Source: Deltaproteobacteria bacterium (GTDB lineage: Bacteria > Desulfobacterota > BSN033 > UBA1163). From it: a DNA stretch of 64,000 nucleotides. Positions 32,852 through 49,666 of this stretch are shown here, in pieces. The first letter of the stretch is position 1. The number at the start of each line of letters is the position of its first letter. The stretch lies in assembly GCA_037444165.1 (NCBI GenBank), contig JBBIMX010000004.1, forward strand, positions 19 to 64,018. The letters are read 5' to 3'. Below the pieces are notes generated by a model that saw only the letters and a program-made list of their open reading frames with translations, was not told the origin of the DNA and did no database searches. The translations under genes and the position numbers were made by a program.

Positions 32852-33544
32852 GTGATGATGATCTCCAAAGAAAAAATCTGTATCCTCATCCCTGCCTATA
32901 ATGCTCAGAACACGATTGGACCTGTCCTGGAGAAAGCCTGTTCCTTGGGGTTAGATACCCTTGTCGTCAACGATGGGTCCACGGATGGGACTTCAGCAAT
33001 AGTCCAAAGCTATGGGGTGAAGCTCTTGGAACATCCCAAGAATCTTGGAAAAGGGGCATCTCTTCGGACTGGATTTCAATATCTCCTTGAGAAGAATTAT
33101 GAGTTAGTCATTACGCTCGATGCGGATGGTCAACACGATCCCTTAGAAATTCCCCTCCTTCTTAAAGCCTTTGATCGGGCGGAACCTGATCTTCTCATTG
33201 GTTCGAGAGCTGCAGAATTCGGGCAGATGCCTTTTCTTCGCCGGTTCTGGAATCGATTGGGAGTGAGGGCAGTCAGTCGCCTCTGTCACGCCGATATTAC
33301 GGATAGTCAATCAGGATTTCGAGTGATGCGAACAGAGCTGTTACGAAGGATTTCTCTCACCACAAAGGGATTTGACACCGAATTGGAACTTTTGATCAAA
33401 GCTTGCAAAATGGGGTTTCGTGTGTTATCCATTCCTGTACATTCTCAAAAATTTAATGGCCCATTTCCCAGTCATTTTAAACCCGTCAAAGACACATGGT
33501 TGGTTTGTAAATTATTTCTCAGGAGTCTCTTTTGGAAGGCATAG
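32852..33544 (+). CDS. Family 2 glycosyltransferase (DPM1-like)
   Basis: The GT-A fold motifs ILIPAYNAQNTIG, VNDGSTDGT and a DAD-type DxD motif are present. Confidence 0.8.
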   Translation: MMMISKEKICILIPAYNAQNTIGPVLEKACSLGLDTLVVNDGSTDGTSAIVQSYGVKLLEHPKNLGKGASLRTGFQYLLEKNYELVITLDADGQHDPLEIPLLLKAFDRAEPDLLIGSRAAEFGQMPFLRRFWNRLGVRAVSRLCHADITDSQSGFRVMRTELLRRISLTTKGFDTELELLIKACKMGFRVLSIPVHSQKFNGPFPSHFKPVKDTWLVCKLFLRSLFWKA

Positions 33545-33549
33545 AATAA

Positions 33550-34947
33550 ATGGATATTTATCAAAAGGCTAAACACTATTCGATCGAAAAATTTACCGTC
33601 AGTGCCTTATCCCTTCTGTCCAATGCGTCAGAGGAGCATTTGATTCGATTGACCATTCTGGCCGAAAAGATTCCCCAGAAAGAATCCTATCGGGAAAAGA
33701 TTCGCTGGATTCGAACCCTCTTTGAAACCCATCATCCTGGATTGACCTTGGCTAAAAGAGTTCTCAGCCAAACCCATCCCCTTCATCGACATAAACTGAT
33801 CTCAAACTTCATCATCAATCAACTCCTCGTGGGAACGAATCAACGAAAAGCCTTTGCGGAAAAAAGCGGGTTCTACCCACCCGATGCCATGCTCCTCAGT
33901 CCCACGATGAGATGTAACCTCCGATGTTATGGTTGTTATGCAGGGTCCTATTCAAAGCAAGAGGATCTCCCCTTGGAGATTATTGATCGACTGATAGAAG
34001 AATGCAAAGGGATGGGAATCTATTTGGTTCTGATGACCGGAGGGGAACCCTTTCTGAGGGAAGACCTTTTTGATCTCTTCGAGAAGCATGGGGACTGTCT
34101 CTTCCAAATTTATACCAATGCCACTCTTATCGATGAGAGGATGATCGAACGATTGGTTTCTCTGGGAAACGTGGTTCCAGCGATCAGCCTCGAAGGGTTC
34201 CGAGAGGAGACCGATGAAAGAAGGGGAAAAGGGCGATTTGATCAAATCCTTAAGGTGATGGATGGGCTAAGGAGGGCCGGCCTCTTCTTCGCTGTCTCCA
34301 CCACTCAGACCTCGAAAAATACAGAGGTATTGGGCAGCGAGGCTTTCGTTGACTTTTTGATTGAGAAGGGATGCATCCTCCTCTGGAATTTTCATTATGT
34401 TCCCATTGGAAAGGACCCGGATCTCAGTTTGATGGCCACCCCGGAACAGAGACAGAAGATCAGGCAACGCTTTGCGTATTTTCGGGCGACTAAACCCATG
34501 CTCTTTGTGGACTTCTGGAATGATGGTTGTCTGACCGGGGGGTGTATCGCAGCTGGGAGAAAGTACTTCCACGTCAATGCAAGAGGGGATGTTGAACCCT
34601 GTGTGTTCTGTCATTTCGCCTCGGATAATATCAAAGAAACGACCCTTTTCGAAGCCCTCAACTCACCCCTCTTCAAAGAGATCCGTAAAAGACAGCCCTT
34701 CTCGGAGAACCTCTATCGTCCCTGTCTTTTGATTGATCATCCGGAACAAGGAAGAGAGATTGCCTTAAAGCATGCCCGATACTTCACCCACCCCCAAGCC
34801 GAACAATTCTTTACCGAATTCTCTCAGGCCATTGATGCCTACGCGAAACGGTATGGTGAGATTGCCGAGAGGGCTTGGCAAGAACAGAAACAACTGAAAA
34901 ACCAACAAAGGGGTCATGGCCAAAAGGTTGCGGGTAGACATGGATGA
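33550..34947 (+). CDS. Radical SAM enzyme with a SPASM/twitch-like C-terminal Fe-S domain and an N-terminal extension of about 100 aa
   Basis: A CxxxCxxC motif (CNLRCYGCYAG) is followed by GGEPF. The C-terminal cysteine cluster GGCIAAG...CVFCHF is SPASM-like. Confidence 0.7.
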   Translation: MDIYQKAKHYSIEKFTVSALSLLSNASEEHLIRLTILAEKIPQKESYREKIRWIRTLFETHHPGLTLAKRVLSQTHPLHRHKLISNFIINQLLVGTNQRKAFAEKSGFYPPDAMLLSPTMRCNLRCYGCYAGSYSKQEDLPLEIIDRLIEECKGMGIYLVLMTGGEPFLREDLFDLFEKHGDCLFQIYTNATLIDERMIERLVSLGNVVPAISLEGFREETDERRGKGRFDQILKVMDGLRRAGLFFAVSTTQTSKNTEVLGSEAFVDFLIEKGCILLWNFHYVPIGKDPDLSLMATPEQRQKIRQRFAYFRATKPMLFVDFWNDGCLTGGCIAAGRKYFHVNARGDVEPCVFCHFASDNIKETTLFEALNSPLFKEIRKRQPFSENLYRPCLLIDHPEQGREIALKHARYFTHPQAEQFFTEFSQAIDAYAKRYGEIAERAWQEQKQLKNQQRGHGQKVAGRHG

Positions 34948-36044
34948 AAGTTACCTTTCCTCATCTTGGCACCATGCATATCTTCTGCAAGGCCATTGCA
35001 GAGACCTCCCACATCCCTTATGTCGTTCCTCCTGAGACCAGTCGCAGAACCCTTACCTTAGGCGTTCAACATTCAAACGAATGTATCTGTCTTCCTTTTA
35101 AAATCATCCTGGGGAATTTCATCGAGGCCCTGGAACGGGGGGCAGATACGATTGTCATGGTTGGAAGTGGTCCTCCCTGTCGACTGGGACTCTATGATCT
35201 GGTTCACAAAGTCATTCTCGAAGACCTTGGGCTTCCTTTTCGATGGCTGACGATCCCTCCTCGATTGACCTGGCAGGCCTTCTGGAAAAACTATGAAGAG
35301 ACAAAGGAGCTCAAAAAAGAGTTGACCTGGAAAAATATTCTTCTTTTCCCTTATGGACTCTATATGGGATGGAAGAAGATGATGGCCTGTGAGACCCTCG
35401 AGAAGCTGGCGATGAAGGTCAGGCCAAAAGAGATCCGAAAGGGAGAGACTCAGAAAAGATTAAAGAAGGCCCTCGATTGGGTGGATAAAGCTCAAACGCC
35501 AAAAAAAGTGGAGGAAGCCCTGAAGGGGGGAGAAAAACTCCTTCTAAACACGGAACAGGATCCTTCTCGAGCCGTTCTTAAAATTGCCATCGTAGGGGAA
35601 CTCTATACGGTGATGGATCCCCATATCAATCGAGGAGTCGAACAGAAATTAGGAGAATTGGGAGCAGAGGTCACCCGTTCTTCCTGGTTTTCCACCCATA
35701 TCCTCAGAAGTCTGAGAAAAAATAAAGCCAATCGACTCTCGGAGAGGATTCAGTTCCTCGAGGCTTCAAAGCTTTATCTGGGTTATGACGTGGGAGCGGA
35801 GTGTAATGTCTCGATAGGAGAAGCGATCTTAAGATCCAGAGAGGGGTATGATGGGGTCGTCCATCTCATGCCCTTTGCCTGTATGCCTGAGACTACCGCT
35901 TCCGGGATTTTAACCCGGGTGGGGAAGGATTGGAACATCCCCATCCTGACCCTTCTTCTGGATGAACAGGAAATCGAGGGCCGGATTCAAACTCTCCTTG
36001 AGGCCTTTGTGGAGATGTTGCAGTGGAAGAGAAAGGGGTCATAG
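34944..36044 (+). CDS. 2-hydroxyacyl-CoA dehydratase-like / activase-associated protein (DUF2229-type domain)
   Basis: The conserved cysteines (ECICLPF, GPPCRLG) resemble the C-terminal modules of fused CoA-substrate-specific enzyme activase proteins. The start overlaps the upstream stop as ATGA. Confidence 0.45.
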   Translation: MKVTFPHLGTMHIFCKAIAETSHIPYVVPPETSRRTLTLGVQHSNECICLPFKIILGNFIEALERGADTIVMVGSGPPCRLGLYDLVHKVILEDLGLPFRWLTIPPRLTWQAFWKNYEETKELKKELTWKNILLFPYGLYMGWKKMMACETLEKLAMKVRPKEIRKGETQKRLKKALDWVDKAQTPKKVEEALKGGEKLLLNTEQDPSRAVLKIAIVGELYTVMDPHINRGVEQKLGELGAEVTRSSWFSTHILRSLRKNKANRLSERIQFLEASKLYLGYDVGAECNVSIGEAILRSREGYDGVVHLMPFACMPETTASGILTRVGKDWNIPILTLLLDEQEIEGRIQTLLEAFVEMLQWKRKGS

Positions 36045-37042
36045 GAATTCCAAGGGCATTGATGTTTTATCGATATTTCCCCCTCTGGAGGAGTTTCTTC
36101 GAGGAGTTGGGTTGGAAGGTCCTCACCTCGGAGGAGTTAGGGAAAAGGGGAAGGCTTATCTATTTTGAGGACAGTTGCCTTCCCATGAAACTTTTAGTCA
36201 CCCATTCCCTCTCTTTAAAGGAAAGGGTCGACTTCCTATTCATTCCCCGCTTGGTCAGCCTCGATCGAGATTATATCATGTGCCCTAAGTTTCGAGGGGC
36301 TCCAGACATTGCTCGATTAGCCATGGAGGGATCCCCTCCAATACTGGATGAAACCATCGATGGACGAACGAAAGGATTTTCCTGGGAGGACGCCTTTTTA
36401 AGGATTGGAAAGAGATTGGGGGCTCAAAGAAAGGACATTCAAAAGGCTATCAAGAAGGCCTGGACTTTTTATTTCAATTTCATGAAGGGATGGGAAGAAC
36501 GGATCAATACCCTTCCTTTGAATCAACTTTGGGAATTTGAAATCCCTCCCGAGACCTCACAAAGAAAGGAGGAGCAATCCTATCGCGTAGCCTTAATAGG
36601 ACATCCTTACAATCTTTATGATAGGGATATCAGTAAAGATCTCCTCTCCTTTATTCGAAAGCTTGGGATGAGAATCACCACCTCGGATTCCCTTTCAAAA
36701 AAAGAGGTGGAGCAGGAGGTCTCAGGTCTTTCAAAAGAGATCTACTGGTCCTCAGGAAGAGAGATAGTCGGCTCTCTGTTTCACTTTCTCTCCAGCTCCC
36801 TTGATGGGGTGATTTTTCTTACCTCTTTCAAATGCGGGATCGATGCCCTCCTTCAGGAATTTGTCAAAAGAAGATTAAAGTGGATGGGAGAAAGCAAGAA
36901 GCCTCTCCTCATCCTCACCCTCGATGAGCATTCAGGAAGGGAGGGGTTGATGACACGGCTTGAAGCCTTCAGGGATGTGTTGGAACAAAAGAAGATTCAA
37001 AATCCGATCCATGAGGGTCAAAACCCTCTCACGGATGGTTAA
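36023..37042 (+). CDS. 2-hydroxyglutaryl-CoA dehydratase D-component-like protein (HGD-D family)
   Basis: The N-terminus (IGIPRALMFYRYFPLWRSFFEELGWKVLTS) is the HGD-D hallmark. It has a translationally coupled overlap with the upstream gene. Confidence 0.55.
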   Translation: MEEKGVIGIPRALMFYRYFPLWRSFFEELGWKVLTSEELGKRGRLIYFEDSCLPMKLLVTHSLSLKERVDFLFIPRLVSLDRDYIMCPKFRGAPDIARLAMEGSPPILDETIDGRTKGFSWEDAFLRIGKRLGAQRKDIQKAIKKAWTFYFNFMKGWEERINTLPLNQLWEFEIPPETSQRKEEQSYRVALIGHPYNLYDRDISKDLLSFIRKLGMRITTSDSLSKKEVEQEVSGLSKEIYWSSGREIVGSLFHFLSSSLDGVIFLTSFKCGIDALLQEFVKRRLKWMGESKKPLLILTLDEHSGREGLMTRLEAFRDVLEQKKIQNPIHEGQNPLTDG

Positions 37043-37044
37043 CG

Positions 37045-37986
37045 ATGGGACTTTATTTAGGAATTGATGTAGGGTCGATCACCACAAAAATGGCCGTCCT
37101 CAATGAGCAGGATGAGGTTTTAGCCCATGTCTATCTTCGAAACAATGGCCGACCCCTTGAAGCGATAAAGAAGGGACTCGAGCAGATTGAGTCTCAACTG
37201 GGAGTCCTTTCAGGGGTGGAGGGGGTGGCCACCACTGGCAGTGCTCGACATCTTGCAGCCTATCTGATCGGGGCCGATCTGATCAAGAATGAAATTACCG
37301 CCCATGCCATCGCTGTGATTGAATCTTTTCCAGAAGCCAAAACGATCATGGAGATTGGAGGACAGGATTCGAAGGTCATCCTCTTGAGGGAAGGGGTGGT
37401 GGTTGACTTTGCAATGAATACGGTCTGCGCGGCAGGGACAGGTTCGTTCCTGGATCAACAGGCCTCCCGGTTAGGAATTTCTATCGAAGAATTTGGCCGT
37501 TTAGCTCTTCGGGCAAAACACCCTGTCCGGATTGCAGGGCGATGTACGGTCTTTGCGGAAACCGATATGATTCACAAACAGCAGATCGGCCATGCGATGG
37601 AGGATATCCTCGCAGGACTGTGTGACTCTCTGGTGAAGAACTATTTGAATAATGTGTGTCGAGGAAAGGAGATCCTCCCTCCTGTGGTCTTTCAGGGAGG
37701 GGTAGCGGCGAATCCCGGGATACGCCAAGCCCTTGAGAAAGAACTGGGATTTGAACTGATCCTTCCAGAGTATTATGGGGTCATGGGAGCCATTGGAGCG
37801 GCCAAGCTCGTCAAACGGAGCAAACCCCAAAAGACACGATTCAAAGGATTTGAATGGTCTCGAAAACCCTGTCAAACTCGGGGCTTTGAATGTAACGAAT
37901 GCGGAAATCAGTGCGAGGTCATCCAACTCTGGGTGGACGATGAAGTGGTCGCCTCCTGGGGCGATCTCTGTGAGAGATATCGATGA
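37045..37986 (+). CDS. CoA-substrate-specific enzyme activase (BadF/BadG/BcrA/BcrD ATPase family, HgdC-like)
   Basis: The ASKHA fold N-terminus (LGIDVGSITTKMAV) and the AMNTVCAAGTGSFLD motif, with the cluster-bridging Cys, are present. The C-terminus is Cys-rich. Confidence 0.75.
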   Translation: MGLYLGIDVGSITTKMAVLNEQDEVLAHVYLRNNGRPLEAIKKGLEQIESQLGVLSGVEGVATTGSARHLAAYLIGADLIKNEITAHAIAVIESFPEAKTIMEIGGQDSKVILLREGVVVDFAMNTVCAAGTGSFLDQQASRLGISIEEFGRLALRAKHPVRIAGRCTVFAETDMIHKQQIGHAMEDILAGLCDSLVKNYLNNVCRGKEILPPVVFQGGVAANPGIRQALEKELGFELILPEYYGVMGAIGAAKLVKRSKPQKTRFKGFEWSRKPCQTRGFECNECGNQCEVIQLWVDDEVVASWGDLCERYR

Positions 37987-39353
37987 AGATTCTGATGATT
38001 AATCCCGCGCCCATCGGAACATTGAAAGCAACGGGTGTGCTCTTTCCACCCCTTGGTCTTCTTTACGTCGCTGCCGTTGCTGAAAAAGAAGGCCATGAGG
38101 TGGAGGTCGTGGATCTGGCTCTTCAAAAGAAGGGAGAAAAGATTGATTTTAAAAGGTATGAGATTGTAGGAATCTCTACGGACACGACCCGGCATCGCCA
38201 GGCTCTCCAATTGGCTAAGAGGGCGAAAAGAGAAGGCTGCACGGTAATCATGGGAGGCCCTCACCCGACCTATGTGGACAAAGAGATTCTCTCCACCGAA
38301 ATGGTCGATTTTATTGTTCGAGGAGAGGGAGAAGTCACTTTCTCGGAATTGATTTCAACTTTAAATCGGGAAAAGGGCAAGTTGGATTCCGTACAGGGGA
38401 TCAGTTTTTTATCCAAAGGCGAAATCCTTCGAACCCCCAGCCGCCCCTTTATTGAGAATCTCGATGAACTCCCCTTCCCTGCCAGGCATCTGGTTCCGAT
38501 GGAGAAGTACCGGCGAACAAAAATGGGAGACCGGGAGGTCACTCCTATCCTGACCAGTCGGGGGTGTCCATTTCAGTGCACCTTTTGTGCCTCATCCCAT
38601 TTTTTTGGAACGAAGGTCAGGCTTCGGAGTCCTGCATCGGTATTAAAGGAGCTCGAAGAACTCTATCATCGATACTCCTTTCAGGCCGTTGCCTTTGTGG
38701 ATGATACCTTCACTCTCTTTCCGGATAGGGTGATCGAAATTGGTAAAGGAATTCTGGAAAGAGGGATGAACCTCTGGTGGTGGTGTCTTTCGAGAGCGGA
38801 CCTTCTCATTCGAAACGAAGAGATGATTCAATGGATGGTTCGGTCAGGGGCGAAATCGGTCTTCATTGGAGTTGAGTCGGCCAATCCAAAGACCCTTGAG
38901 AGTCTGAAAAAAAGGATCGATCGAAACACCACGACTCGGGCTGTTGAAATGCTGAAACGATATGGCCTCGAGATCCATGCCTCTTATATCTTAGGCGGAC
39001 TCGATGAGACGGCTCGGGCAATTCATGAAACGATCCGATTGGCAAAAGAACTGGACACGAATGTGGCCCAATTTTCCATCCTTACCCCCTATCCAGGGAC
39101 CCTCCTCTATGAGCAGTTGAAGGATCGGATCTTCAGGTGGAGAGCTCCATGGTCATTTTTCGACATGCAACATCTGGTCTTCAAACACGACCATCTCTCC
39201 TTCATTCGGATGGAATGGCTTTTGATGAAGGCTCATCTTCTCTACTATCTGCGATCAAAGAAAGGGATTCGTGATCTCTGGCATCATATTAAAAAACACC
39301 GGATTACCCTTCGAACCTTCTTTCAATTTCTTAAAGAATACTTCTGGGGATAA
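37983..39353 (+). CDS. Cobalamin-binding (class B) radical SAM enzyme, paralog 1
   Basis: An N-terminal B12-binding Rossmann domain (MKILMINPAP...GHEVEVVDLA) is followed by a radical SAM core (RGCPFQCTFCAS). Confidence 0.8.
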   Translation: MKILMINPAPIGTLKATGVLFPPLGLLYVAAVAEKEGHEVEVVDLALQKKGEKIDFKRYEIVGISTDTTRHRQALQLAKRAKREGCTVIMGGPHPTYVDKEILSTEMVDFIVRGEGEVTFSELISTLNREKGKLDSVQGISFLSKGEILRTPSRPFIENLDELPFPARHLVPMEKYRRTKMGDREVTPILTSRGCPFQCTFCASSHFFGTKVRLRSPASVLKELEELYHRYSFQAVAFVDDTFTLFPDRVIEIGKGILERGMNLWWWCLSRADLLIRNEEMIQWMVRSGAKSVFIGVESANPKTLESLKKRIDRNTTTRAVEMLKRYGLEIHASYILGGLDETARAIHETIRLAKELDTNVAQFSILTPYPGTLLYEQLKDRIFRWRAPWSFFDMQHLVFKHDHLSFIRMEWLLMKAHLLYYLRSKKGIRDLWHHIKKHRITLRTFFQFLKEYFWG

Positions 39354-39355
39354 AG

Positions 39356-40270
39356 ATGGAGAATCGAGATCGTCTCTCTACCTACCGATTTCTCTCCCTC
39401 TTTCTCTTCCAATTCTTCTCTACCCTTATCCCCCGTTCCATGCAGAAGTTCTTCAGTGTCGTCGTAGGAGATCTCTTCTATTTATTGATGCCCAAGACAA
39501 GGACTTCTGTTCGAAAGAATATCGAAGGGATCAGCCAAGGAAGATGGGCGAAAGGAAAGATTGAAACCTATACCCGTAAAACTTTTCAGAACTATGGACA
39601 GTATCTCTTAGATTATATGGTCATGCATCGACTCTCTCCTTCTCATAAAGACCGGTGGGTGGAAGAAGAGATTGGAGGTCACTATATGATAGAAGCCCTC
39701 CAGAGAGGAAAAGGGGTGATCTGTATCACTCCTCATCTTGGAAACTGGGAGCTGGGAGGACTCCTCTTTTCCTTTAAAGGAGGAAAACTCAATGTCCTTA
39801 CCCTGGACGAAGAAGATCGAGGAATTAAATCTTATCGTGAAGAGATGCGAAGAAGATGGGGGATTCGAAACATCTATATTCACCCCGGAGACGATTCTCC
39901 TCTGGCCACCCTCGAAGCGGTTCAAGCATTGAGGCGAAATGAGATTGTGGCCATGTTGGGAGATCGGATCGAAACTCAGAGGACGATGGAGTTGGATTTC
40001 TTTGGTAAGAAAACCCCTTTCCCCATTGGAGCAGCCTTGATGGCCATGACCACAGGGGCTGCGGTCCTCCCGGTCTTTGTCGTCATGGAAAGGAATCGAA
40101 AATATCGAGGGATCATCGAATCCCCTGTCTATTTTGATTCCTCTTCTCGAGAGGAACGCGAATCCATCCTGAGAAAAGGGATGGAAGAGATCGTGAAAAA
40201 ATTTGAATCCTATATCGAAAAATATCCTGATCAATGGTATAATTTTTATTCTTATTGGAACGATTCCTGA
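39356..40270 (+). CDS. LpxL/HtrB-family lysophospholipid (lipid A-type) acyltransferase
   Basis: The HX4D-type motif ITPHLGNWELGG is present, with an N-terminal TM anchor. It is in the LPLAT_LABLAT-like family. Confidence 0.75.
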   Translation: MENRDRLSTYRFLSLFLFQFFSTLIPRSMQKFFSVVVGDLFYLLMPKTRTSVRKNIEGISQGRWAKGKIETYTRKTFQNYGQYLLDYMVMHRLSPSHKDRWVEEEIGGHYMIEALQRGKGVICITPHLGNWELGGLLFSFKGGKLNVLTLDEEDRGIKSYREEMRRRWGIRNIYIHPGDDSPLATLEAVQALRRNEIVAMLGDRIETQRTMELDFFGKKTPFPIGAALMAMTTGAAVLPVFVVMERNRKYRGIIESPVYFDSSSREERESILRKGMEEIVKKFESYIEKYPDQWYNFYSYWNDS

Positions 40271-40295
40271 GATCGATAAAAAGAGGGAGTTTCCA

Positions 40296-40565: not shown

Positions 40566-40569
40566 AGAG

Positions 40570-41502
40570 ATGGAAGCCAAAAACAAAATTGCCTTCTGTT
40601 TCCCAGGACAAATTCAGGAAAGACCCATTCTTTCGAAGTACCACCCCCTCTCTGAAGACCCTTTCTTCCGAGATTGGGTAGATCGGGCAGAGAAGGAAAC
40701 TGGAATAGAATTATGGAAATTTATGAACGAGGAGACGGAGGGAGAGCAAGTCCCTCTCAAATTACAGCTCACCACCTATCTCTTCTCGGTGATCTATTTT
40801 CAACGACTTTTAGAGAAAGGATGGACTCCTGAAATCCTCACCGAACATAGCATGGGAATCTATGCAGCGCTCACCGCTTCCGAGGCCATCACCTTTGAAG
40901 AAGGACTCTTTATCACCCATTCCATTGGGAGACTTCTCGAGGAAGAAGGGGCTCTCTGCCCCGGGATGATGGCAAGCATCATCGGTCTTCCTCTTGAAGA
41001 AATCCAGAAGATTATCAGTACCCTTGATGGATATCGCTTAGCCATTGCCAATTACAATGGATCAATGCATTTTGTGATTTCAGGAGAGGAGGAGGGGGTT
41101 CAAAAAGCGATGGAGCTTGCCCTGGCCCGGAAGGCCCTTTCAGTGAGTAAACTTTCTTTCAACACGGCTCTTCACTCTCCTCCCCTGAGCCATCTCAGGG
41201 GAAAGATCCGGGATCTGTTGAGGGAGATTGAAGTCCGTCCATTCCGGTATCCTATTCTTAATCACTGGACCATCCAACCACTCAACCGGGGGGAAGTGAA
41301 AGACTTTCTTTCCGAAGAGATTGCCCGCCCGGTTTACTGGGTTCGATGTGTGGAGAAATGTATTCAGGAAGGGGTTCGTCAGTTCGTCGAAGTCGGCAAA
41401 GAATCGACCCTGACGAAACTGATTCGTTGGATTGATCGGGAGGTCGAGGCCCTCTCGGCTGAGGAACTCCTCTTCTCGGGGGGACGAGATGGGATCCTAT
41501 GA
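40570..41502 (+). CDS. ACP S-malonyltransferase-like acyltransferase (FabD family)
   Basis: The sequences IAFCFPGQ and the nucleophile motif EHSMGIYAAL (GHSxG-like) are present. Length is 310 aa. Confidence 0.7.
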   Translation: MEAKNKIAFCFPGQIQERPILSKYHPLSEDPFFRDWVDRAEKETGIELWKFMNEETEGEQVPLKLQLTTYLFSVIYFQRLLEKGWTPEILTEHSMGIYAALTASEAITFEEGLFITHSIGRLLEEEGALCPGMMASIIGLPLEEIQKIISTLDGYRLAIANYNGSMHFVISGEEEGVQKAMELALARKALSVSKLSFNTALHSPPLSHLRGKIRDLLREIEVRPFRYPILNHWTIQPLNRGEVKDFLSEEIARPVYWVRCVEKCIQEGVRQFVEVGKESTLTKLIRWIDREVEALSAEELLFSGGRDGIL

Positions 41503-41911
41503 AACTCGATTCCGGGTTCGTTTTCATGAGGTCGATGCTTATGGAATGGTCTGGCATGGTCATTTTGTGGCCTGGTTTGAAATGGGTCGAAATGAATTGA
41601 CTGAAAAATTTGGCTTGGGCCCCTTTCAACTCAAGGGAAGAGGGCTCTTGGCTCCGGTGGTCCATCTTTCCTGTGAATTCAAACAACCTGCTCGGTTCGG
41701 AGAGACCCTTCTCCTTCAAACGAGTATGGAAAGGACGGAAGTGGCCAAGTTAATCTTTCATTATCGAATCCTCCACCAAGGAGAAGAAAAGATAGTGGCG
41801 ACAGGATCGACGACCCATGTGTTGACCGATCTCAATGGAAATCTCCTTTACCGGATCCCTCCCGACCTCCTTAAAAAGATAGAAGAGATGATGAAATTTT
41901 TAGGGGTATAG
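41489..41911 (+). CDS. Hotdog-fold acyl-CoA/acyl-ACP thioesterase (4HBT/YbgC family)
   Basis: The sequence VRFHEVDAYGMVWHGHFVAWFEMGRNE is typical of 4HBT. The start overlaps the upstream stop. Confidence 0.7.
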   Translation: MGSYETRFRVRFHEVDAYGMVWHGHFVAWFEMGRNELTEKFGLGPFQLKGRGLLAPVVHLSCEFKQPARFGETLLLQTSMERTEVAKLIFHYRILHQGEEKIVATGSTTHVLTDLNGNLLYRIPPDLLKKIEEMMKFLGV

Positions 41912-41912
41912 G

Positions 41913-43349
41913 ATGAAGGTTTTATTGATCGATCCTCCCCATCGAATCTTCCCTGGGTTAAGAATGTGGGCTCCTTCCTTTGGTCTTCTCCAACTCTCCG
42001 CCTATCTGGAAGCCGAGGGAGTGAGCGTTCAAATCATAGATGGAACCACTCTTCGAGAACCCTGGAAAGAGCTTCAAGAACAGATCGTCTCCTCAAAAGC
42101 CGATGTGATTGGAATCACCTGTACAGCTACCTGTCTATCTCCCGAAGCGATTCAGACGATTTATCTTTCACGAAGACTTTCTCCTCGATCCATCCTCGTG
42201 GGAGGAGGAAGTCACTTCACCCTGATGGCCAAAACCATTCTCGAGGAGGTTCCCGATCTGGACTACATTGTTCTGGGGGAAGGAGAGATCGCCTTTCTTC
42301 AACTTCTCAAAAGCCTTTCCAATGGAAAAAATGGAAGAGAGGTGAGGGGAATCGCCTATCGGGAAGATGGAAGGGTGATTCTCAATGAAAGACAGCCATT
42401 GATTACTCCTCTGGATGGTCTTCCTCTTCCAGCCTATCATCTCATCGATGTCGAGAGCGAAGCCTACTACTGGCATGGAATGGGTCGAAGGGCCTTTGGA
42501 GTGTCCACCAGTCGGGGATGTGGGGATCACTGTAGCTACTGTTCCGAGACAAAATTTTGGGAAGGGGTCTGGAGGGGAAGAAGCGGGAAGAAGGTCGTCG
42601 AGGAGATCTCCTTCCTTTATCGAAAATATGGAAAAAGTCTCTTTGTCTTTAATGAAAACGCCTTCAATTGGAGTCGGAAACGGCTGGAGGAGTTTCTCGA
42701 AGAGTTAGGAAAATCAGGGCTCCGGATTCATTTCTGGTTCCAATCTCGAGTGAAAGATATCCTGAGGGACGAAGATCTCCTTCCGGAAATGAAGCGCCTC
42801 GGCCTTTATGAGGTGATGTTAGGGATTGAGAGCATTCAACCCGACGTCCTACAGCGATATGAAAAAGACCAGTCTCGGGAGTTGGCTGAGAAGGCGATTG
42901 AGCTCCTTCGTCGAAATGGGATCATGGTCATGGCTAACGTCATGTTTGGGGATTGGAATGATTCGGAGGCCAATCTGAAAGAGATCTTTCGTTTTGTGAA
43001 AAAAAAGAGCGATTTCTTAGTCCTCACCATCACCACTCCTCTCCCTGGGACAAAATACTTCGAAGAGGCGGAGCGTCTGGGAAGGATAAGGGAAAAGGAC
43101 TTTGGAAAATACGACTTTATGCATCCCGTCATGGATACAAAATTTCTCTCCGCTCCTGAGGTAGAGCGACTTCAAAAGGCTTACCTTAAAAAGTATTATA
43201 CCCAACCGAGGATTCTGCTCGGAGCCTTCTTTAACCCAAACCCTTTTAAGAGAATGGCCTACCGACTCATCTTAAGATACGTCTGGGAGAATGCCACAAA
43301 GAGACCCTGGAAGCAACCCAATTGGAAAGATGACAGGCAAGAGGGATAG
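41913..43349 (+). CDS. Cobalamin-binding (class B) radical SAM enzyme, paralog 2
   Basis: B12-binding N-terminus (MKVLLIDPPHR...GVSVQIIDG). The radical SAM motif is RGCGDHCSYCSE. Confidence 0.8.
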   Translation: MKVLLIDPPHRIFPGLRMWAPSFGLLQLSAYLEAEGVSVQIIDGTTLREPWKELQEQIVSSKADVIGITCTATCLSPEAIQTIYLSRRLSPRSILVGGGSHFTLMAKTILEEVPDLDYIVLGEGEIAFLQLLKSLSNGKNGREVRGIAYREDGRVILNERQPLITPLDGLPLPAYHLIDVESEAYYWHGMGRRAFGVSTSRGCGDHCSYCSETKFWEGVWRGRSGKKVVEEISFLYRKYGKSLFVFNENAFNWSRKRLEEFLEELGKSGLRIHFWFQSRVKDILRDEDLLPEMKRLGLYEVMLGIESIQPDVLQRYEKDQSRELAEKAIELLRRNGIMVMANVMFGDWNDSEANLKEIFRFVKKKSDFLVLTITTPLPGTKYFEEAERLGRIREKDFGKYDFMHPVMDTKFLSAPEVERLQKAYLKKYYTQPRILLGAFFNPNPFKRMAYRLILRYVWENATKRPWKQPNWKDDRQEG

Positions 43350-43352
43350 AGA

Positions 43353-44696
43353 TTGAAATCAAAATCCACTCCCCACTCTCCGAATTCGAAAAAGGTCCTT
43401 CTTATCTTTCCGAGGGAGAAGGGGATCAAATTTTCAAACGATACCTTCTATCCCTTTCCCATGATTGGCCTTCCTCTTCTGGCCGCCTATTTTCCCAACA
43501 CCTACGAGGTCAAAATTCTAAACGAAGCCATCGAACCGATCGATTTCGATACGGAAGTGGATCTGGTCGGAATCACTGCCCTTACCTGTATAGCGCACCG
43601 GGCCTATGAAGTGGCGGATCGGTTCCGAAGAAGAGGGGTAAAGGTCATTTTAGGAGGGGTTCACCCAAGCATTCAACCTGAGGAGGCAAAGGAACACGCC
43701 GATTCTGTGGTGATTGGGGAAGCAGAAGGGGTCCTTGGAGAGATCCTCAAAGACTTTGAAGCCGGGGCCCTTAAACCTTTTTATCAGAATCATTCCCTGT
43801 GTGACTTAAGAGGACTCCCCTTGCCGAGAAGGGATCTTCTGAGTAAACGGTACAGCCCCTTGTTTAAGGCGATCGAAACCACCCGGGGCTGTCCCCATCG
43901 ATGCGAATTCTGTTCGGTCCCCATTCTCAATGGGAGAAGGTATCGGATGCGACCCCTCGAGGAGGTCGATCGGGAACTCTCCCTGATCATCAAAAAGCCA
44001 AAGGAGTATCTCTTTGTTACCGATGACAACATCGTCGCCATCGAGGATTATGCCCTCGGCCTCTTTGACATCTTTAAACGGCATCAGGTGAGATGGATGG
44101 GGTTTTCTACCCTTCAGATTGCAACCAATGAGACACTTCTGCGGAAAGCGAGCGAGAGTGGGTGTCTCTCTCTCTTTATCGGATTCGAATCCCTCCTTCA
44201 AGAGAATCTCAATCACGTCTCAAAGTCCTTTGTTCACACCGAACTTCTTCCGGAGTGGATTAGGAGCATTCATGGCTATGGAATTGGCATCCATGGTTCT
44301 TTCATCTTTGGCTTTGATGGGGATGATTCAACGATCTTTCGGAAAACCGTTGAGTTTGTTCAAAAGAATCGAATCGATCTTCCCTCTTTTTCTATCCTCA
44401 CCCCTTTTCCGGGGACTCGACTCTATCAGCGGTTAGAAGAGGAAGGCCGGATCATTGACCGCAATTGGTCCCATTACGATATGAGCCATGTCGTCTTTCA
44501 ACCCAAGCAGATGACGGTCAGACAGCTTCAAGAGGGATATCTCTGGGCTCAACAGTATAGCTGTTCTCCTCGTTCGATCTTCCAACGCCTCCTCTGGAGG
44601 TGGAGAAATCACTTTTTCTTTTTTTTAATGTCAAATTTTGTCCTCCGGGGAGCCCAAATGGATGTGATTCGAAGAATAAGAAAAAGGCCCCAATAA
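43353..44696 (+). CDS. Cobalamin-binding (class B) radical SAM enzyme, paralog 3
   Basis: B12-binding N-terminus (VLLIFPREKG...). The radical SAM motif is RGCPHRCEFCSVP. Confidence 0.8.
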   Translation: MKSKSTPHSPNSKKVLLIFPREKGIKFSNDTFYPFPMIGLPLLAAYFPNTYEVKILNEAIEPIDFDTEVDLVGITALTCIAHRAYEVADRFRRRGVKVILGGVHPSIQPEEAKEHADSVVIGEAEGVLGEILKDFEAGALKPFYQNHSLCDLRGLPLPRRDLLSKRYSPLFKAIETTRGCPHRCEFCSVPILNGRRYRMRPLEEVDRELSLIIKKPKEYLFVTDDNIVAIEDYALGLFDIFKRHQVRWMGFSTLQIATNETLLRKASESGCLSLFIGFESLLQENLNHVSKSFVHTELLPEWIRSIHGYGIGIHGSFIFGFDGDDSTIFRKTVEFVQKNRIDLPSFSILTPFPGTRLYQRLEEEGRIIDRNWSHYDMSHVVFQPKQMTVRQLQEGYLWAQQYSCSPRSIFQRLLWRWRNHFFFFLMSNFVLRGAQMDVIRRIRKRPQ

Positions 44697-44700
44697 AAGG

Positions 44701-46110
44701 ATGAAGATTCTACTGATCTCTATCAATCGGGAACGAATGCCGGCTCCTGTTTTTCCTCTGGGGCTGGCCTATATCGCCCGAGCTTTAAAAGAGAGGGGAC
44801 ATCGGATAGAAGTATCGGATCTCTGTTTTTCTCAAGATCCCTCTCACGAGGTTCAAGAGGTCCTCTTTCGATTTCAACCGGATCTCATAGGACTCTCCCT
44901 GAGAAATCTTGACAATCTGACCTATCCCCACTCTCTCTCTTATCTTGATGAACTCAAAGAGGTGATCTCCATCTGTCGTCAACTCCCCTCATCAAAATTA
45001 GTCCTCGGTGGCTCAGGGTTCTCCCTCGCACCTAAGGAACTCTTCAATGAACTGGATGTGGATTTTGGGATTATTGGAGAGGGGGAGGAGATCATGGTGA
45101 AACTGGTGGAATCTCTCGAAAGGAAGGAACCCCTCCCTTTCCTCCCCTCTCTTCTCATCAAAGGGGAACCGATCCCCTCTAAAATCGAAGGGGCCAGAGC
45201 CCCGTTGAGTTTTACCCCGGAACGCTCTTTCTTCAAGAGTGAGCGTTATCTCAGGGAAGGGGGAATGCTTAATCTTCAAACCAAACGGGGTTGCCCTTTC
45301 TCTTGTATCTACTGCACGTACCCTCTTCTGGAAGGCAAAGAGGTGAGACTCCGGCAGATAGAGGAAGTCATCGAAGAGATCCGACACCTCATCCAAGACG
45401 AGGGAGCGGATTATCTCTATTTCGTTGACGACCTCTTCAATTATCCCTCTTCCTATGCCGAGCAGTTATGTCGAAAGATGGTTCGGGAAGGACTGAAGGT
45501 TCGGTGGAGCGCCTTTATCCATCCTCGCTTTCTTTCCAAAGAACTCTTAAAATGGATGAAAGAGGCGGGATGTGTGGGGATTGAATTTGGAACCGACTCG
45601 GGTTCACCCAGAATGCTTAAACAGTATCGAAAAGCCTTTTCTCAAGAAGAGATCGTCCGCTCTTCCCGAATCTGTGAGGAACTCGGGATGAATTACTGTC
45701 ATTATCTTCTGCTGGGAGGACCTGGAGAGGATGAGGAAACCATCGAAGAATCCTTTCAATTGATGGATCGGCTCAATCCGACTGCAGTCATTGCTATGTT
45801 AGGGATCCGTATCTATCCGGGAACAGAACTCCATCGACTCGCTCTTCTCGAAGGGAGGATCCAGAAAGGGACTAATCTCGCCTATCCCATTTTTTATCTC
45901 TCTCCGAAACTTGAAGGAAGATTAGAAGAGATCCTTCGTGAAAAGGCCATGGAGCGAAGACAGTGGATCGTTCCAGGTCTCGAGATCAATCTCTCCAATA
46001 CCCTGATGGAACAGATTCGACAATTTCAGATTCGAGGTCCCCTGTGGGACCTTGTAGGCAGAATGAAACGGCCAAGAATAAGACCCTTAAAAAATGACGG
46101 AAGTCATTAA
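44701..46110 (+). CDS. Cobalamin-binding (class B) radical SAM enzyme, paralog 4
   Basis: B12-binding N-terminus (MKILLISINRERMPAP...GHRIEVSDL). The radical SAM motif is RGCPFSCIYCTYP. Confidence 0.8.
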   Translation: MKILLISINRERMPAPVFPLGLAYIARALKERGHRIEVSDLCFSQDPSHEVQEVLFRFQPDLIGLSLRNLDNLTYPHSLSYLDELKEVISICRQLPSSKLVLGGSGFSLAPKELFNELDVDFGIIGEGEEIMVKLVESLERKEPLPFLPSLLIKGEPIPSKIEGARAPLSFTPERSFFKSERYLREGGMLNLQTKRGCPFSCIYCTYPLLEGKEVRLRQIEEVIEEIRHLIQDEGADYLYFVDDLFNYPSSYAEQLCRKMVREGLKVRWSAFIHPRFLSKELLKWMKEAGCVGIEFGTDSGSPRMLKQYRKAFSQEEIVRSSRICEELGMNYCHYLLLGGPGEDEETIEESFQLMDRLNPTAVIAMLGIRIYPGTELHRLALLEGRIQKGTNLAYPIFYLSPKLEGRLEEILREKAMERRQWIVPGLEINLSNTLMEQIRQFQIRGPLWDLVGRMKRPRIRPLKNDGSH

Positions 46111-46125
46111 ATCGATTGTGGGAGG

Positions 46126-46872
46126 TTGACCATGTTACTTCAAGATAAGGTGGCAATTGTGACCGGGGGAACTCGAGGGATTGGAAGGGCCATCTCTCTC
46201 CTCTTCGCAGAGGAGGGGGCAAGGGTCGTGGCTAACTTTTCGAAAAACGTGGAGGCTGCAGAGTCCTTAATTGAAGAAGCTCGGAGCAAAAAATTGACAT
46301 TAGGGCTCTTTAAGGCCGATGTGACCCAATTTGATCAAGTCAAGGAGATGGTGGAGGAGGTCTTCAGAGGATACGGAAGAATCGATATTTTAGTGAATAA
46401 TGTGGGACTCGTCCGAGACAATTTTCTGATGCTCATGAGTGATGAAGATTGGGACTCCCTCCTCAAGGCAAATCTTACAAGTCTTTTTTATTGCTGTAGG
46501 GCTGTCATTCGGAAGATGATTCCGGAGCGAAGAGGGAAAATTGTCAATCTCTCTTCCATCAGTGGTATCCTTGGAACTTCTGGTCAAACCAACTATGCAG
46601 CGACCAAAGGAGGAGTGATCGGTTTTACCAAATCCCTGGCTCGAGAATTAGGACCCTTCAATATTCAGGTCAATGCGGTGGCTCCAGGATTGATTGAATC
46701 TGAGGTGGTCTCAAAAATGCCAAAAGAAAGGGTAGAGGCCATTATTAAATCCTCAAGCCTGGGAAGGATGGGGAAACCTGAGGAAGTGGCCCAGGCGGTC
46801 CTCTTCTTGGCCTCAGATCGTTCAAGTTATATCACCGGCCAAACCCTCATCGTCGATGGGGGAATCTTATAG
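46126..46872 (+). CDS. fabG: 3-oxoacyl-ACP reductase (SDR family, FabG-like)
   Basis: The cofactor-binding motif [11 protein letters not shown] and the catalytic motifs S...NYAATK are present, with similarity over the full length. Confidence 0.85.
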
Positions 46873-46877
46873 GGAAA

Positions 46878-48095
46878 ATGAAGAGAGTGGTGGTGACAGG
46901 ATTGGGTGTTTTTTGTTCGATAGGGAAAAATGTGGAGGAGTTTTTCCGATCCTTAAGAGAGGGCCACTCAGGAATCGGCCCGATCACCCTCTTTGATCCC
47001 TCGAAATATCCTTCGAAGATTGGAGCCGAAGTGAGGGATTATTTCCCGGAAAGATATTTTGAAAAGAAGGAACTTAAGAGGCTTTCGAGGACGGACCAGA
47101 TGGCCCTTATTGCGGCTGAAGAAGCAGTCCGATCCTCTAAATTTGAAACCTATAAGCCCGAAGAAGTAGGGGTCTGCATGGGTGCGGGTGCTGGCGGAAT
47201 GTTTGAAGCAGAAGGCTATCACCGGCAAGTGCTTCTCAAGGGAAAATCCCGCCCTTCTTTGATTCTTCCTTTTATCCCAAGCTATACTACAAACCGAATC
47301 ACAGAACGATTTGGACTTTCAGGGCCCAAAATGACCATTACTACTGCCTGCAGTTCATCGGCCACGGCCATCGGTTATGGGGCTGATCTGATTCGAAGGG
47401 GAAAATGCAAAGCCGTCTTATGTGGAGGAAGTGAGGCGTTGTGTGAACTCACTTTTGGGGGATTTAACTCCCTTAAAGCCATGGATCCCTCTCCCTGCAA
47501 ACCTTTCGATCGAAGGAGGGCTGGAATGTCATTGGGAGAAGGAGCAGCCATCTTGATCTTAGAAGATGAGGAGGAAGCAATAAAAAGGGGAGCGAGGATT
47601 TATGCGGAATGTTTAGGCTATGGAATCGGGGGAGAGGCTTACCATATTACAGCACCAGAACCCAATGGATTCATTGAGGCTCAAATCATGAGGCAAGCCC
47701 TTAAAGAGGGAAGAGTATCTCCAGAGCAGGTCGATTATATCAACGCCCATGGAACAGCGACACCTCTGAATGATAAAGTGGAAAGCCTGGCTATTAAAAG
47801 AGTGTTTGGTGAAAGGGCTTACCAGATTCCTGTAAGTTCGATCAAGTCAATGGTGGGTCATTGTCTGGGAGCGGCAGGGGCGATCGAGGCGGTCGCATCG
47901 ATTCTTTCCATCTTTTATCAATTTATCCCACCCACCCTAAACTTCGAGCAGGGAGATGAGGACTGCGATCTTGATTATGTTCCCAAGATGGCCCGAGAGA
48001 AAGAGGTCCAAGTGGTGCTTTCCAACTCCTTCGCCTTCGGCGGAAACTGTACCTCCCTTGCCTTCGGCAAGATAGATGGATCCTTTATTAGTTAA
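46878..48095 (+). CDS. Beta-ketoacyl-ACP synthase (KAS I/II, FabF-like)
   Basis: The Cys-His-His triad is present (TTACSSS, HGTATPLND, GHCLGAAG). Length is 405 aa. Confidence 0.85.
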   Translation: MKRVVVTGLGVFCSIGKNVEEFFRSLREGHSGIGPITLFDPSKYPSKIGAEVRDYFPERYFEKKELKRLSRTDQMALIAAEEAVRSSKFETYKPEEVGVCMGAGAGGMFEAEGYHRQVLLKGKSRPSLILPFIPSYTTNRITERFGLSGPKMTITTACSSSATAIGYGADLIRRGKCKAVLCGGSEALCELTFGGFNSLKAMDPSPCKPFDRRRAGMSLGEGAAILILEDEEEAIKRGARIYAECLGYGIGGEAYHITAPEPNGFIEAQIMRQALKEGRVSPEQVDYINAHGTATPLNDKVESLAIKRVFGERAYQIPVSSIKSMVGHCLGAAGAIEAVASILSIFYQFIPPTLNFEQGDEDCDLDYVPKMAREKEVQVVLSNSFAFGGNCTSLAFGKIDGSFIS

Positions 48096-49657: not shown

Positions 49658-49666
49658 GCCATTTTC

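Follow-up and report, generated by a model that had tools for sequence, protein, structure and literature searches.

A candidate membrane-lipid gene cluster with five radical SAM enzymes and a split PlsA/Ger-type system, conserved in uncultured Syntrophia-like Thermodesulfobacteriota

Introduction

There are hardly any documented cases of radical S-adenosylmethionine (SAM) chemistry on fatty-acyl lipids: a 2026 review lists, among ketoacyl (non-isoprenoid) lipids, only the ladderanes, which are unsolved, and jawsamycin as proposed examples (PMC13459092), and the biosynthesis of ladderanes was still unsolved as of August 2026 (PMC13459092, PMC10139942). Here we analyse a gene cluster that brings five radical SAM enzymes together with parts of a fatty acid synthase (FAS), a lipid anchor module and a DUF2229/HGD protein pair with its ATP-dependent activase. 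It lies in a 64,000-nucleotide stretch of DNA from a Deltaproteobacteria bacterium (assembly GCA_037444165.1, contig JBBIMX010000004.1, positions 19 to 64,018 of the forward strand), which is referred to as the window.

Several described systems share parts with this cluster. Among the hopanoid head-group enzymes, HpnI is a GT2 glycosyltransferase, HpnK a deacetylase and HpnJ a cobalamin (B12)-type radical SAM enzyme. In the aryl-polyene (APE) lipid clusters, exemplified by apeA-R of Escherichia coli CFT073 and by the locus of Xenorhabdus doucetiae, a sugar-phospholipid is acylated by a special chain carried by an acyl carrier protein (ACP); genetics and structure elucidation in Xenorhabdus indicate that ApeJ adds GalNAc-phosphate to a glycerolipid and then acylates that sugar with the ApeE-bound chain (bioRxiv 10.1101/2020.12.19.423268; PMC8253772). 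Clusters of the antiSMASH 'ladderane' class, known from Kuenenia stuttgartiensis, Desulfotalea psychrophila and Geobacter, likewise pair type II FAS parts with radical SAM enzymes, and such clusters have been reported in Desulfobacterota without products. Finally, the fusion of DUF2229 with two activase domains is the architecture of Ger and PlsA, and anaerobic expression of Ger in E. coli leads to the conversion of sn-1 esters to alkyl ethers (PMC13159169); in the literature, DUF2229 is treated in this Ger study and one unrelated paper only. No paper describing the gene combination reported here was found.

This paper describes the gene content, the conservation and the chromosomal setting of the cluster, and compares it with the systems named above. 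The cluster proteins and their relatives suggest, with a probability of about 0.55, a lineage-fixed specialised membrane-lipid pathway of Syntrophia-like Thermodesulfobacteriota in which a radical-tailored acyl chain is placed on a sugar-phospholipid; the product itself is not defined by sequence. Judged by homology, the cluster combines four modules, namely an APE-type anchor module, an FAS-type module, the five radical SAM enzymes and a split PlsA/Ger-type system.

Materials and Methods

Domains were called with Pfam and NCBIfam profiles at their curated cutoffs. The aryl-polyene locus of E. coli CFT073 was fetched and compared directly with the window, and the Kuenenia, Desulfotalea and Geobacter clusters were compared by description. 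Related loci were collected by a genome scan covering one genome per GTDB species, supplemented by neighbourhood look-ups, and gene order was followed in a tblastn matrix; where individual loci have to be told apart they are given as L001, L003 and so on.

Results

Gene organization

The cluster comprises 15 genes, all on the plus strand between 32852 and 48095, within a plus-strand gene run that continues unbroken from 30470 to 62881 (Table 1). Neighbouring genes of the cluster either lie 1-25 bp apart or overlap by 4-22 bp; the overlaps are found between the SPASM radical SAM gene and HGDa (-4, ATGA), between HGDa and HGDb (-22), between the activase and B12-rSAM1 (-4, ATGA), and between the acyltransferase (AT) and the 4HBT thioesterase (-14, with the thioesterase start taken as the ATG at 41489). 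The first-pass annotation of this DNA had described the same packed, co-directional genes with the same domain content, and every one of its domain calls was reproduced by Pfam and NCBIfam; of the five overlapping junctions it had counted, the overlaps as such stand and the number becomes four by the start choices used here, which is a minor correction. The ATP-grasp gene that it had placed immediately upstream, at 31630, is indeed there and in addition belongs to the conserved unit, so that the 16 genes at 31630-48095 (~16.5 kb) form one conserved block.

The close packing of the genes suggests a single transcription unit, a suggestion that draws on packing because a scan for promoter and terminator patterns gave counts no higher than in shuffled sequence. 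Rfam and tRNA scans detected nothing inside the cluster, the only hit being a thiamine pyrophosphate (TPP) riboswitch elsewhere in the window. All proteins of the cluster are predicted to be soluble or peripheral, without multi-pass membrane segments, and no transporter, regulator, resistance or exporter gene is present. An inner-membrane lipid would fit these properties, since all proteins are soluble or peripheral and an exporter is lacking.

Table 1. Genes of the conserved block, with the profile matches on which the domain calls are based.
Feature	Position	Strand	Profile matches
ATP-grasp ligase	31630..32784	+	PF15632, PF02655
Soluble GT2 glycosyltransferase, DPM1/PpgS/AglJ type	32852..33544	+	PF00535, 95.7 bits
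Radical SAM enzyme with SPASM/twitch-type auxiliary-cluster domain and 110-aa N-terminal extension	33550..34947	+	PF04055, PF13186
DUF2229/HGD-D protein (HGDa)	34944..36044	+	PF09989, 45.9 bits
DUF2229 protein (HGDb)	36023..37042	+	PF09989, 138 bits
HgdC-type ATP-dependent activase (electron injector)	37045..37986	+	PF01869, 162 bits; TIGR00241, 196.6 bits (cutoff 125.4)
Cobalamin-type radical SAM enzyme 1 (B12-rSAM1)	37983..39353	+	PF02310, PF04055
LpxL/PatA-type acyltransferase (LPLAT)	39356..40270	+	PF03279 (Lip_A_acyltrans), 109 bits
Dedicated ACP, ApeE type	40296..40565	+	PF00550; NF006617, 71.9 bits (cutoff 70)
FabD-like acyltransferase (AT)	40570..41502	+	PF00698, 51 bits
Hot-dog 4HBT thioesterase, YbgC/FadM type, ApeK type	41489..41911	+	PF13279, PF03061; TIGR00051, 74.5 bits (cutoff 68.7)
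Cobalamin-type radical SAM enzyme 2 (B12-rSAM2)	41913..43349	+	PF02310, PF04055
Cobalamin-type radical SAM enzyme 3, with DUF4070 (B12-rSAM3)	43353..44696	+	PF04055, PF02310, PF13282
Cobalamin-type radical SAM enzyme 4 (B12-rSAM4)	44701..46110	+	TIGR04072, 402.8 bits (cutoff 360)
FabG-type 3-oxoacyl-ACP reductase	46126..46872	+	PF13561, 224 bits; NF009466, 266.5 bits (cutoff 222)
FabF-type ketosynthase (KS)	46878..48095	+	NF005589, 435 bits (cutoff 387)

Anchor module, carrier protein and fatty acid synthase parts

The first-pass annotation had pointed to an overlap with aryl-polyene and 'ladderane-type' clusters, and this holds up; for the aryl-polyene clusters the direct comparison with CFT073 shows it in the ACP, the GT2 enzyme, the LPLAT and the 4HBT thioesterase. 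The ACP shares 49% identity with the ApeE-type carrier, compared with 45% over a short stretch of E. coli AcpP; it carries the serine of the DSI motif, and it fails the AcpP model TIGR00517 (45 bits versus 70.45) while passing NF006617. CFT073 ApeJ is a fused GT2/acyltransferase (C_RS05605), and its two halves are matched by two separate gene products of the window, the N-terminal half by the GT2 enzyme (27.5% identity, E 1e-16) and the C-terminal half by the LPLAT (24%, E 2e-16), the latter being kept also in the minimal sister cluster L051 that is described below. The 4HBT protein is 30% identical to the ApeK-type thioesterase C_RS05600 (E 2e-16). On the AglJ and PpgS models the GT2 enzyme reaches ~102 bits, below the cutoffs, and no hydrophobic segment is predicted in it. 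As judged from these alignments, the window carries the anchor module of aryl-polyene lipids, with ApeJ split into two genes.

The elongation enzymes are closer to housekeeping enzymes than to their APE counterparts. The KS has an intact C158, H291, H328 triad and shares 41% identity with E. coli FabF and 32-33% with APE ketosynthases, and the FabG-type ketoreductase (KR) is 43% identical to E. coli FabG and 34% to the APE reductase. For the acyltransferase, which had been called FabD-like, the family assignment stands and the malonyl-binding residue does not: aligned with E. coli FabD, it conserves Q11, H91-S92 and H201, but the window and the three relatives aligned all have Ile in place of R117, the residue that binds the carboxylate of the malonyl group, and the protein fails the FabD model TIGR00128 (146.5 bits versus a cutoff of 260.9). 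A role as malonyl transferase is therefore unlikely, and the enzyme is probably a starter-unit loader. A housekeeping FAS operon was considered and rejected, as the ACP does not pass the AcpP model, the AT does not pass the FabD model, and the genes fabH, plsX and fabZ are missing.

Since an ApeE-type ACP, ApeJ-type GT2 and acyltransferase domains, an ApeK-type thioesterase, a KR and a KS are held in common, the cluster might be seen as a variant aryl-polyene or flexirubin-type pigment cluster, i.e., a type II polyketide synthase-like system placing a conjugated polyene on a lipid anchor, and one relative (L003) even contains a FabA/ApeI-like dehydratase. Against this identity, which we consider very unlikely, the window has no aryl-starter ligase, ammonia-lyase, SAM methyltransferase, chain-length factor, dehydratases (ApeI, ApeP) or LolA/MMPL export genes; AMP-binding domains of the ApeH starter-activation type and SAM methyltransferase domains are absent from all genes between 30470 and 49657, chain-length factor and FabA/FabZ domains are absent from the window, and the single KS has the full triad. 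The lack of an aryl starter, of FabZ/FabA and of an enoyl reductase, which the first-pass annotation had listed, is thus reproduced by the domain scans. The KS and KR identities given above (41% and 43% to the housekeeping enzymes, 33% and 34% to the Ape enzymes) also argue against a pigment locus, and the five radical SAM enzymes, the ATP-grasp ligase and the DUF2229/activase trio have no counterpart in APE loci, whose anchor genes are the only ones that the window shares with CFT073. The hosts differ as well, the carriers of the present cluster being strict anaerobes known only from metagenome-assembled genomes (MAGs).

Radical SAM enzymes

All five radical SAM enzymes contain the CX3CX2C motif. 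In the SPASM enzyme it lies at residues 122-129 and is followed by six further cysteines, of which C275, C332, C351, C354 and C392 are invariant and C327 is present in 33 of 34 sequences. Its nearest families are NirJ2/AhbD (~100 bits, far under the cutoffs), and its relatives in the PDB are SkfB, BlsE and CteB. A role in the maturation of a ribosomally synthesised and post-translationally modified peptide (RiPP) was rejected, as there is no precursor-sized open reading frame at the junctions and no match to PqqD or a RiPP recognition element, and as the context is that of an ACP and FAS parts.

The four cobalamin-type enzymes share 24-29% mutual identity and are thus old paralogues, presumably with different jobs. 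For B12-rSAM1 the best NCBIfam matches are BchE (208 bits), ApyD (180 bits) and HpnJ (179 bits), all far under cutoff; its gene is missing from about one third of the related clusters and is an accessory gene, the other three cobalamin enzymes being conserved. B12-rSAM2 (75-82% identity across MAGs) is matched best by BchE (251 bits versus a cutoff of 481) and in the PDB has distant relatives only (9ccb, AprD4, TokK, TsrM and CysS), and B12-rSAM3 (70-76% identity across MAGs) is matched best by HpnJ (96.9 bits versus 577.6). B12-rSAM4 belongs to TIGR04072 ('lipid biosynthesis B12-binding/radical SAM protein'), a family of which no mention was found in the literature and on which B12-rSAM1-3 reach 84-118 bits and are not members; the next model for B12-rSAM4 is BzaD (229 bits versus 450), and its nearest solved structure is that of TsrM (124 bits).

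These scores bear on whether the cobalamin enzymes belong to hopanoid or BchE-type families; the first-pass annotation had named a hopanoid locus and a cofactor or bacteriochlorophyll maturation family as alternatives. BchE reaches 208.4 and 251.4 bits versus 481, HpnJ 178.9 bits versus 577.6 and HpnR 170.9 bits versus 650, and one of the four enzymes passes TIGR04072, so that this assignment does not hold. Like the hopanoid head-group set, the lipid cluster has a GT2 enzyme, HpnJ-like cobalamin radical SAM enzymes and, in some relatives, a deacetylase; unlike it, the window has no deacetylase, no squalene-hopene cyclase and no HpnH, and the two HpnJ scores of 179 and 97 bits lie far from 577.6.

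The TIGR04072 family was first tied to FAS-like clusters of Kuenenia and Desulfotalea (PMC2649909), and antiSMASH calls such combinations of FAS and radical SAM genes in Desulfobacterota 'ladderane', so a ladderane or ladderane-precursor cluster of the kind proposed for anammox bacteria has to be weighed. The glycosyltransferase and the TIGR04072 enzyme are indeed shared with the antiSMASH class, as is, in some relatives, a polysaccharide deacetylase; the window, however, lacks the phytoene-dehydrogenase-like gene, amxFabZ, the inactive KS paralogues and the phenylacetyl-CoA ligase of those clusters, whose descriptions in turn contain neither the DUF2229/HGD trio nor the SPASM enzyme. From the anammox candidate cluster (PMC10139942) the window has only an ACP, one FabF and B12-dependent radical SAM enzymes, and the set of amxACP, amxFabZ, FabF/FabF2 pair and phytoene-dehydrogenase-like enzyme is absent, there being just one catalytically normal KS. 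With carriers that are Syntrophaceae- or Thermodesulfobacteriota-type MAGs and not anammox Planctomycetota, and with D. psychrophila, which has a related cluster, making no ladderanes (PMC2649909), a ladderane product is hardly credible.

Beside the cobalamin enzymes, a separate observation concerns a gene on the minus strand at 27465-28295, ~4 kb upstream of the cluster, encoding an AP_endonuc_2 protein that resembles CbiR, a cobamide-remodelling phosphodiesterase (88.9 bits versus a cutoff of 105); a similar gene is found upstream of TatA in L003.

The DUF2229/HGD pair and its activase

HGDa is the most conserved protein of the cluster (80-87% identity across MAGs, 169 of 366 alignment columns invariant), followed by the SPASM enzyme and the ATP-grasp ligase. 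It has six invariant cysteines (15, 49, 79, 149, 287 and 313), and HGDb has three conserved ones. HGDb aligns end to end with module 1 of a fused protein from Alkalispirochaeta that is 1495 aa long and contains two activase domains (BcrAD x2 + DUF2229 architecture; 27%, E 6e-24), and HGDa gives a weak match to residues 1204-1350, in module 2 of the same protein (E 5e-6).

Compared with the sequences in the PDB, HGDa and HGDb gave no significant match, for HGDb even when a profile was used. When a predicted model of HGDb was submitted to a fold search, the top six matches were HadC, BzdN, MbdN, the double-cubane cluster protein (DCCP), BzdO and HadB. The activase matches MbdQ (138.6 bits), HadI (133.1 bits) and HgdC (122.2 bits) in the PDB, and its cluster cysteines C128 and C167 are invariant. 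By this model, HGDb shares the fold of the superfamily of 2-hydroxyacyl-CoA dehydratases, benzoyl-CoA reductases and DCCP, and an HgdC-type activase is present as partner. The pair scores 25.5 and 18.3 bits on PF06050, below the gathering threshold of 28.4, and its alignments place it in the DUF2229 PlsA/Ger branch and not with canonical HgdAB; the 'radical dehydratase' of the first-pass annotation is thus right in its superfamily and wrong in its branch. From 2-hydroxyacyl-CoA dehydratases, class I benzoyl-CoA reductases and DCCP the pair is further set apart by the lack of a significant sequence match to solved members and by a context without CoA-transferase or aromatic-degradation genes. 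With the plasmalogen synthase PlsA/PlsR and with Ger it shares the domain inventory (BcrAD_BadFG, DUF2229 and HGD-D-like), the lipid context and the need for anaerobic conditions; in contrast to their fused BBD(H...) form (PMC13159169), the window has three genes with one activase domain and ~27% identity, embedded in an ACP/acyltransferase cluster, and an ester-to-ether activity would be assigned to it by analogy.

The C-terminal tail of the activase (residues 276-313; 37870-37986) contains the invariant cysteines C283, C286, C290 and C309, with C276 present in 36 of 41 sequences, and may hold an extra metal site; the solved activases matched are shorter (243-276 aa).

Stand-alone HGDb-like proteins of ~330 aa are common, an exhaustive search of 50% cluster representatives returning 360 clusters at E <=1e-30. 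In Desulfofundulus kuznetsovii DSM 6115 (CP002770.1; L054:8001-11052) the split trio stands alone next to spoVA sporulation genes (identities of 37% for the DUF2229 protein, 38% for the DUF2229/HGD protein and 58% for the activase), and cultured Firmicutes have the trio only, without the rest of the cluster. D. kuznetsovii is a tractable cultured host for finding the native substrate of the trio. The sister cluster L051:3823-7829 consists of only a DUF2229 protein (44% to HGDb), the activase (63%), the LPLAT (43%), the ACP (62%) and the 4HBT protein (43%), without radical SAM enzymes, KS, KR or GT2; as just these genes are kept together, the reductase module appears to be functionally tied to the ACP/acyltransferase module.

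A different role for the trio would be that of the missing dehydratase or reductase of chain elongation, performing ketyl-radical chemistry on hydroxyacyl- or enoyl-ACP and not on a lipid ester. We hold this to be unlikely: beta-hydroxyacyl dehydration requires no radical chemistry, what the known dehydratases of the superfamily remove is an alpha-hydroxyl group, and FabG does not produce one, and the nearest sequence relatives have the PlsA/Ger and not the HgdAB architecture, in line with the PF06050 scores under threshold. The idea nevertheless gains from the lack of FabZ/FabA or FabI in the window, from the thioester carbonyl that the known chemistry of the superfamily needs (HadBC, BzdNO), from the ACP gene that always adjoins the trio, even in the minimal cluster L051, and from the cysteines of HGDb and HGDa (three conserved and six invariant, respectively).

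Conservation and carriers

In the protein collection, which has no exact entry for the DUF2229 protein of the window, 1953 relatives of it are found, and the best 120 of these, with at least 57% identity, come from MAGs labelled Deltaproteobacteria, Thermodesulfobacteriota or Syntrophaceae; the closest is 93% identical (L006). The genome scan and the neighbourhood look-ups returned 45 loci, of which 44 are close relatives, all in uncultured Syntrophaceae, Syntrophorhabdus or Thermodesulfobacteriota MAGs; the remaining locus, from an Alkalispirochaeta MAG, carries the fused DUF2229 protein at 27% identity. Judging by the record titles, the carrier MAGs come from peat, from soils or sediments, from the deep anoxic water of lakes, and from groundwater and subsurface aquifers.

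The order ATP-grasp, GT2, SPASM radical SAM, HGDa, HGDb, activase, (B12-rSAM1), LPLAT, ACP, AT, 4HBT, B12-rSAM2, -3, -4, FabG, KS is kept in the syntenic loci (L001-L049 and L052) at 57-87% amino-acid identity, and in a distant clade (L038-L040) at ~50%. The synteny across metagenomes that the first-pass annotation had proposed to analyse thus extends over ~45 species-level MAGs, and since the same order recurs in ~45 independent genomes, the cluster is not a chance assembly. The ATP-grasp gene adjoins GT2 in almost all of the related loci, with identities of 70-84% (61% in L038), and 146 of 384 columns of its alignment are invariant; the probable function of the ligase is to make an amide bond on the head group.

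The cluster sits in ordinary core chromosome. The guanine-plus-cytosine (GC) content is flat at 0.45-0.49 across the window, which also holds ffh, rpsP, rimM, trmD, rplS, rnhB and the thiamine operon behind the TPP riboswitch. Upstream of the cluster lie a Liv-type ABC transporter, PurL, KefC and TatA/TatC, and downstream TctCBA, PrpD, PrpF, aconitase, isocitrate dehydrogenase and 2-oxoacid:ferredoxin oxidoreductase, and the same TatA/TatC neighbours stand beside the cluster in relatives. A mobile island was ruled out by the uniform GC content and the conserved flanks. The uniform GC content, the housekeeping flanks and the recurring TatA/TatC neighbours point to vertical inheritance under purifying selection within one uncultured Syntrophia-like lineage, and such conservation speaks more for a physiological (membrane) role than for a secondary metabolite of sporadic occurrence.

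A diffusible secondary metabolite, i.e., a glycosylated radical-tailored polyketide or fatty acid in place of a membrane lipid, is for this reason quite unlikely, even though an ACP, KS, KR, AT, thioesterase, glycosyltransferase, radical SAM enzymes and an ATP-grasp ligase are typical of natural-product clusters too and the nearest solved relatives of the SPASM enzyme are natural-product maturases. The fixed position beside TatAC with vertical inheritance at 57-87% in ~45 species, the uniform GC, the lack of any transporter, regulator or resistance gene, and an anchor module homologous to one that makes a membrane lipid all speak for the lipid.

Four elements vary among the related loci: B12-rSAM1, RadC, an IS200-like gene and a polysaccharide deacetylase. 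The deacetylase (PF01522 + DUF3473), which is not present in the window, lies between ATP-grasp and GT2 in about one quarter of the related clusters (e.g., L001:6028-6855, L038:5617-6459 and L052:3418-4254), and no anti-correlation with B12-rSAM1 was seen across the related loci. A RadC gene separates TatC from ATP-grasp in most relatives (e.g., L001:3848-4537); in the window, which lacks it, the two genes are 34 bp apart (31596-31629). At the junction of 4HBT and B12-rSAM2 a gene for an IS200-like Y1 transposase of ~174 aa (168-175) is found in L003 (16173-16697), with the identical junction in L004, L005, L020, L029, L035, L044 and L045, and this gene may be an insertion that was inherited, or else a RAYT-like gene that has been domesticated; the window lacks it and has a gap of 1 bp at this junction. 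The FabA/ApeI-like dehydratase of L003 (18527-18979) follows B12-rSAM2, in the slot that B12-rSAM3 takes in the window, and some genomes may have a rearranged cluster tail.

Other features of the window

The co-directional genes downstream of the cluster (48173-62881, plus strand), which besides those named above encode a flavoprotein with an Fe-S partner, a ferredoxin and the subunits of the 2-oxoacid:ferredoxin oxidoreductase, may be a set for tricarboxylate use or for the reverse tricarboxylic acid cycle. The TPP riboswitch (RF00059, 65.5 bits, 14487-14594, plus strand) precedes a thiamine operon with genes to 18092, comprising Thi4 (14645-15445), a ThiD-ThiN fusion (15256-16770) and ThiC (16803-18092). 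A 512-aa protein encoded at 7463-9001 (plus strand) joins a BamD/YfiO TPR lipoprotein domain to an LptA/LptD N-terminal domain, an unusual pairing of outer-membrane assembly modules. PurL (24476-27445, minus strand; 989 aa) has a weak PurS-like N-terminal stretch, which suggests a PurS-PurL fusion.

Discussion

Taken by its profile scores and alignments, the cluster is neither an aryl-polyene, a ladderane, a hopanoid nor a BchE locus, nor does it encode a canonical HgdAB system, and it shares modules with each of them. The earlier statements that it encodes a dedicated pathway for an unusual acyl lipid and that it matches no characterised cluster are both upheld.

For the membrane-lipid pathway the following course can be proposed. 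The arginine-less AT would prime the dedicated ACP with a non-malonyl starter, and FabF and FabG would elongate and reduce the chain, with any dehydration or enoyl reduction borrowed from the housekeeping FAS. While the chain is bound to the carrier or the lipid, the cobalamin radical SAM enzymes may methylate or rearrange unactivated (or enolisable) carbons, and the SPASM enzyme may perform one more radical C-H functionalisation, e.g., a cross-link or a decarboxylation. The GT2 enzyme would add hexosamine(-phosphate) to a glycerolipid and the LpxL-type enzyme would O-acylate the sugar with the ACP-bound chain, as in APE lipids, after which the ATP-grasp ligase, together with the deacetylase in some relatives, would elaborate the head group. 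Spending ATP, the activase would supply the DUF2229/HGD heterodimer with a low-potential electron for the one-electron reduction of a (thio)ester carbonyl; by analogy with PlsA/PlsR and Ger, conversion of an ester into an (alkenyl/alkyl) ether would be the most likely outcome. The thioesterase, finally, may edit or recycle the ACP. Priming and elongation are supported by the residue checks and the anchoring step by the tested homology to ApeJ, ApeE and ApeK, and we infer the two radical SAM steps, head-group elaboration, reduction and thioesterase action. The DUF2229/HGD module thus possibly carries out ATP-driven reductive chemistry of the ester-to-ether type.

Several observations weigh against this pathway. 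Cobalamin radical SAM enzymes do much besides methylation, as BchE, HpnJ, AprD4 and OxsB illustrate. The identity to the PlsA/Ger-type protein is ~27% and the Alkalispirochaeta comparator is itself uncharacterised, the identity to ApeJ is low (24-27%), and the HGDb model is of moderate confidence (predicted local distance difference test score, pLDDT, of 63.5). The split trio occurs alone, without lipid genes, in D. kuznetsovii and in a Nitrospirae MAG, so that it is an old general-purpose reductase module recruited here, for which the substrate is only a guess. As the window lacks a dehydratase and an enoyl reductase, chain length and saturation cannot be predicted. All carrier genomes are MAGs, and no cultured carrier appeared in the genome scan.

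A more specific version of the membrane-lipid pathway, which is unlikely as it stands, is an orphan class of anaerobic lipids in which B12-dependent radical SAM enzymes set methyl branches on a carrier-bound chain and the split PlsA/Ger-type reductase turns the ester into an ether. If this were true, methyl branching would proceed without oxygen or branched-chain amino-acid primers, and the Syntrophia-like lineage of peat, anoxic lake water and groundwater would be a source of multi-methylated ether lipids, with branched alkyl glycerol ethers and 'overly branched' or branched glycerol dialkyl glycerol tetraether (GDGT)-type biomarkers as candidates. The anaerobic producers and the methylases of these biomarkers are not known (PMC11868695). 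The cluster would then also hold the first HgdC-activated iron-sulfur reductase inside an ACP-dependent lipid assembly line.

With five radical SAM enzymes and an ATP-driven low-potential reductase in a non-anammox FAS-like locus, the cluster is a compact test system, to which the predicted solubility of all its proteins and the E. coli-related anchor module give handles. Its carriers are widespread, occurring in subsurface aquifers, in peat and in the deep anoxic water of lakes, and orphan branched and ether lipids are abundant in such anoxic settings. Once solved, the product could tie a biomarker to a lineage, bring to light how branched or ether lipids are made anaerobically, and, through the shared TIGR04072 family, help with the stalled ladderane problem.

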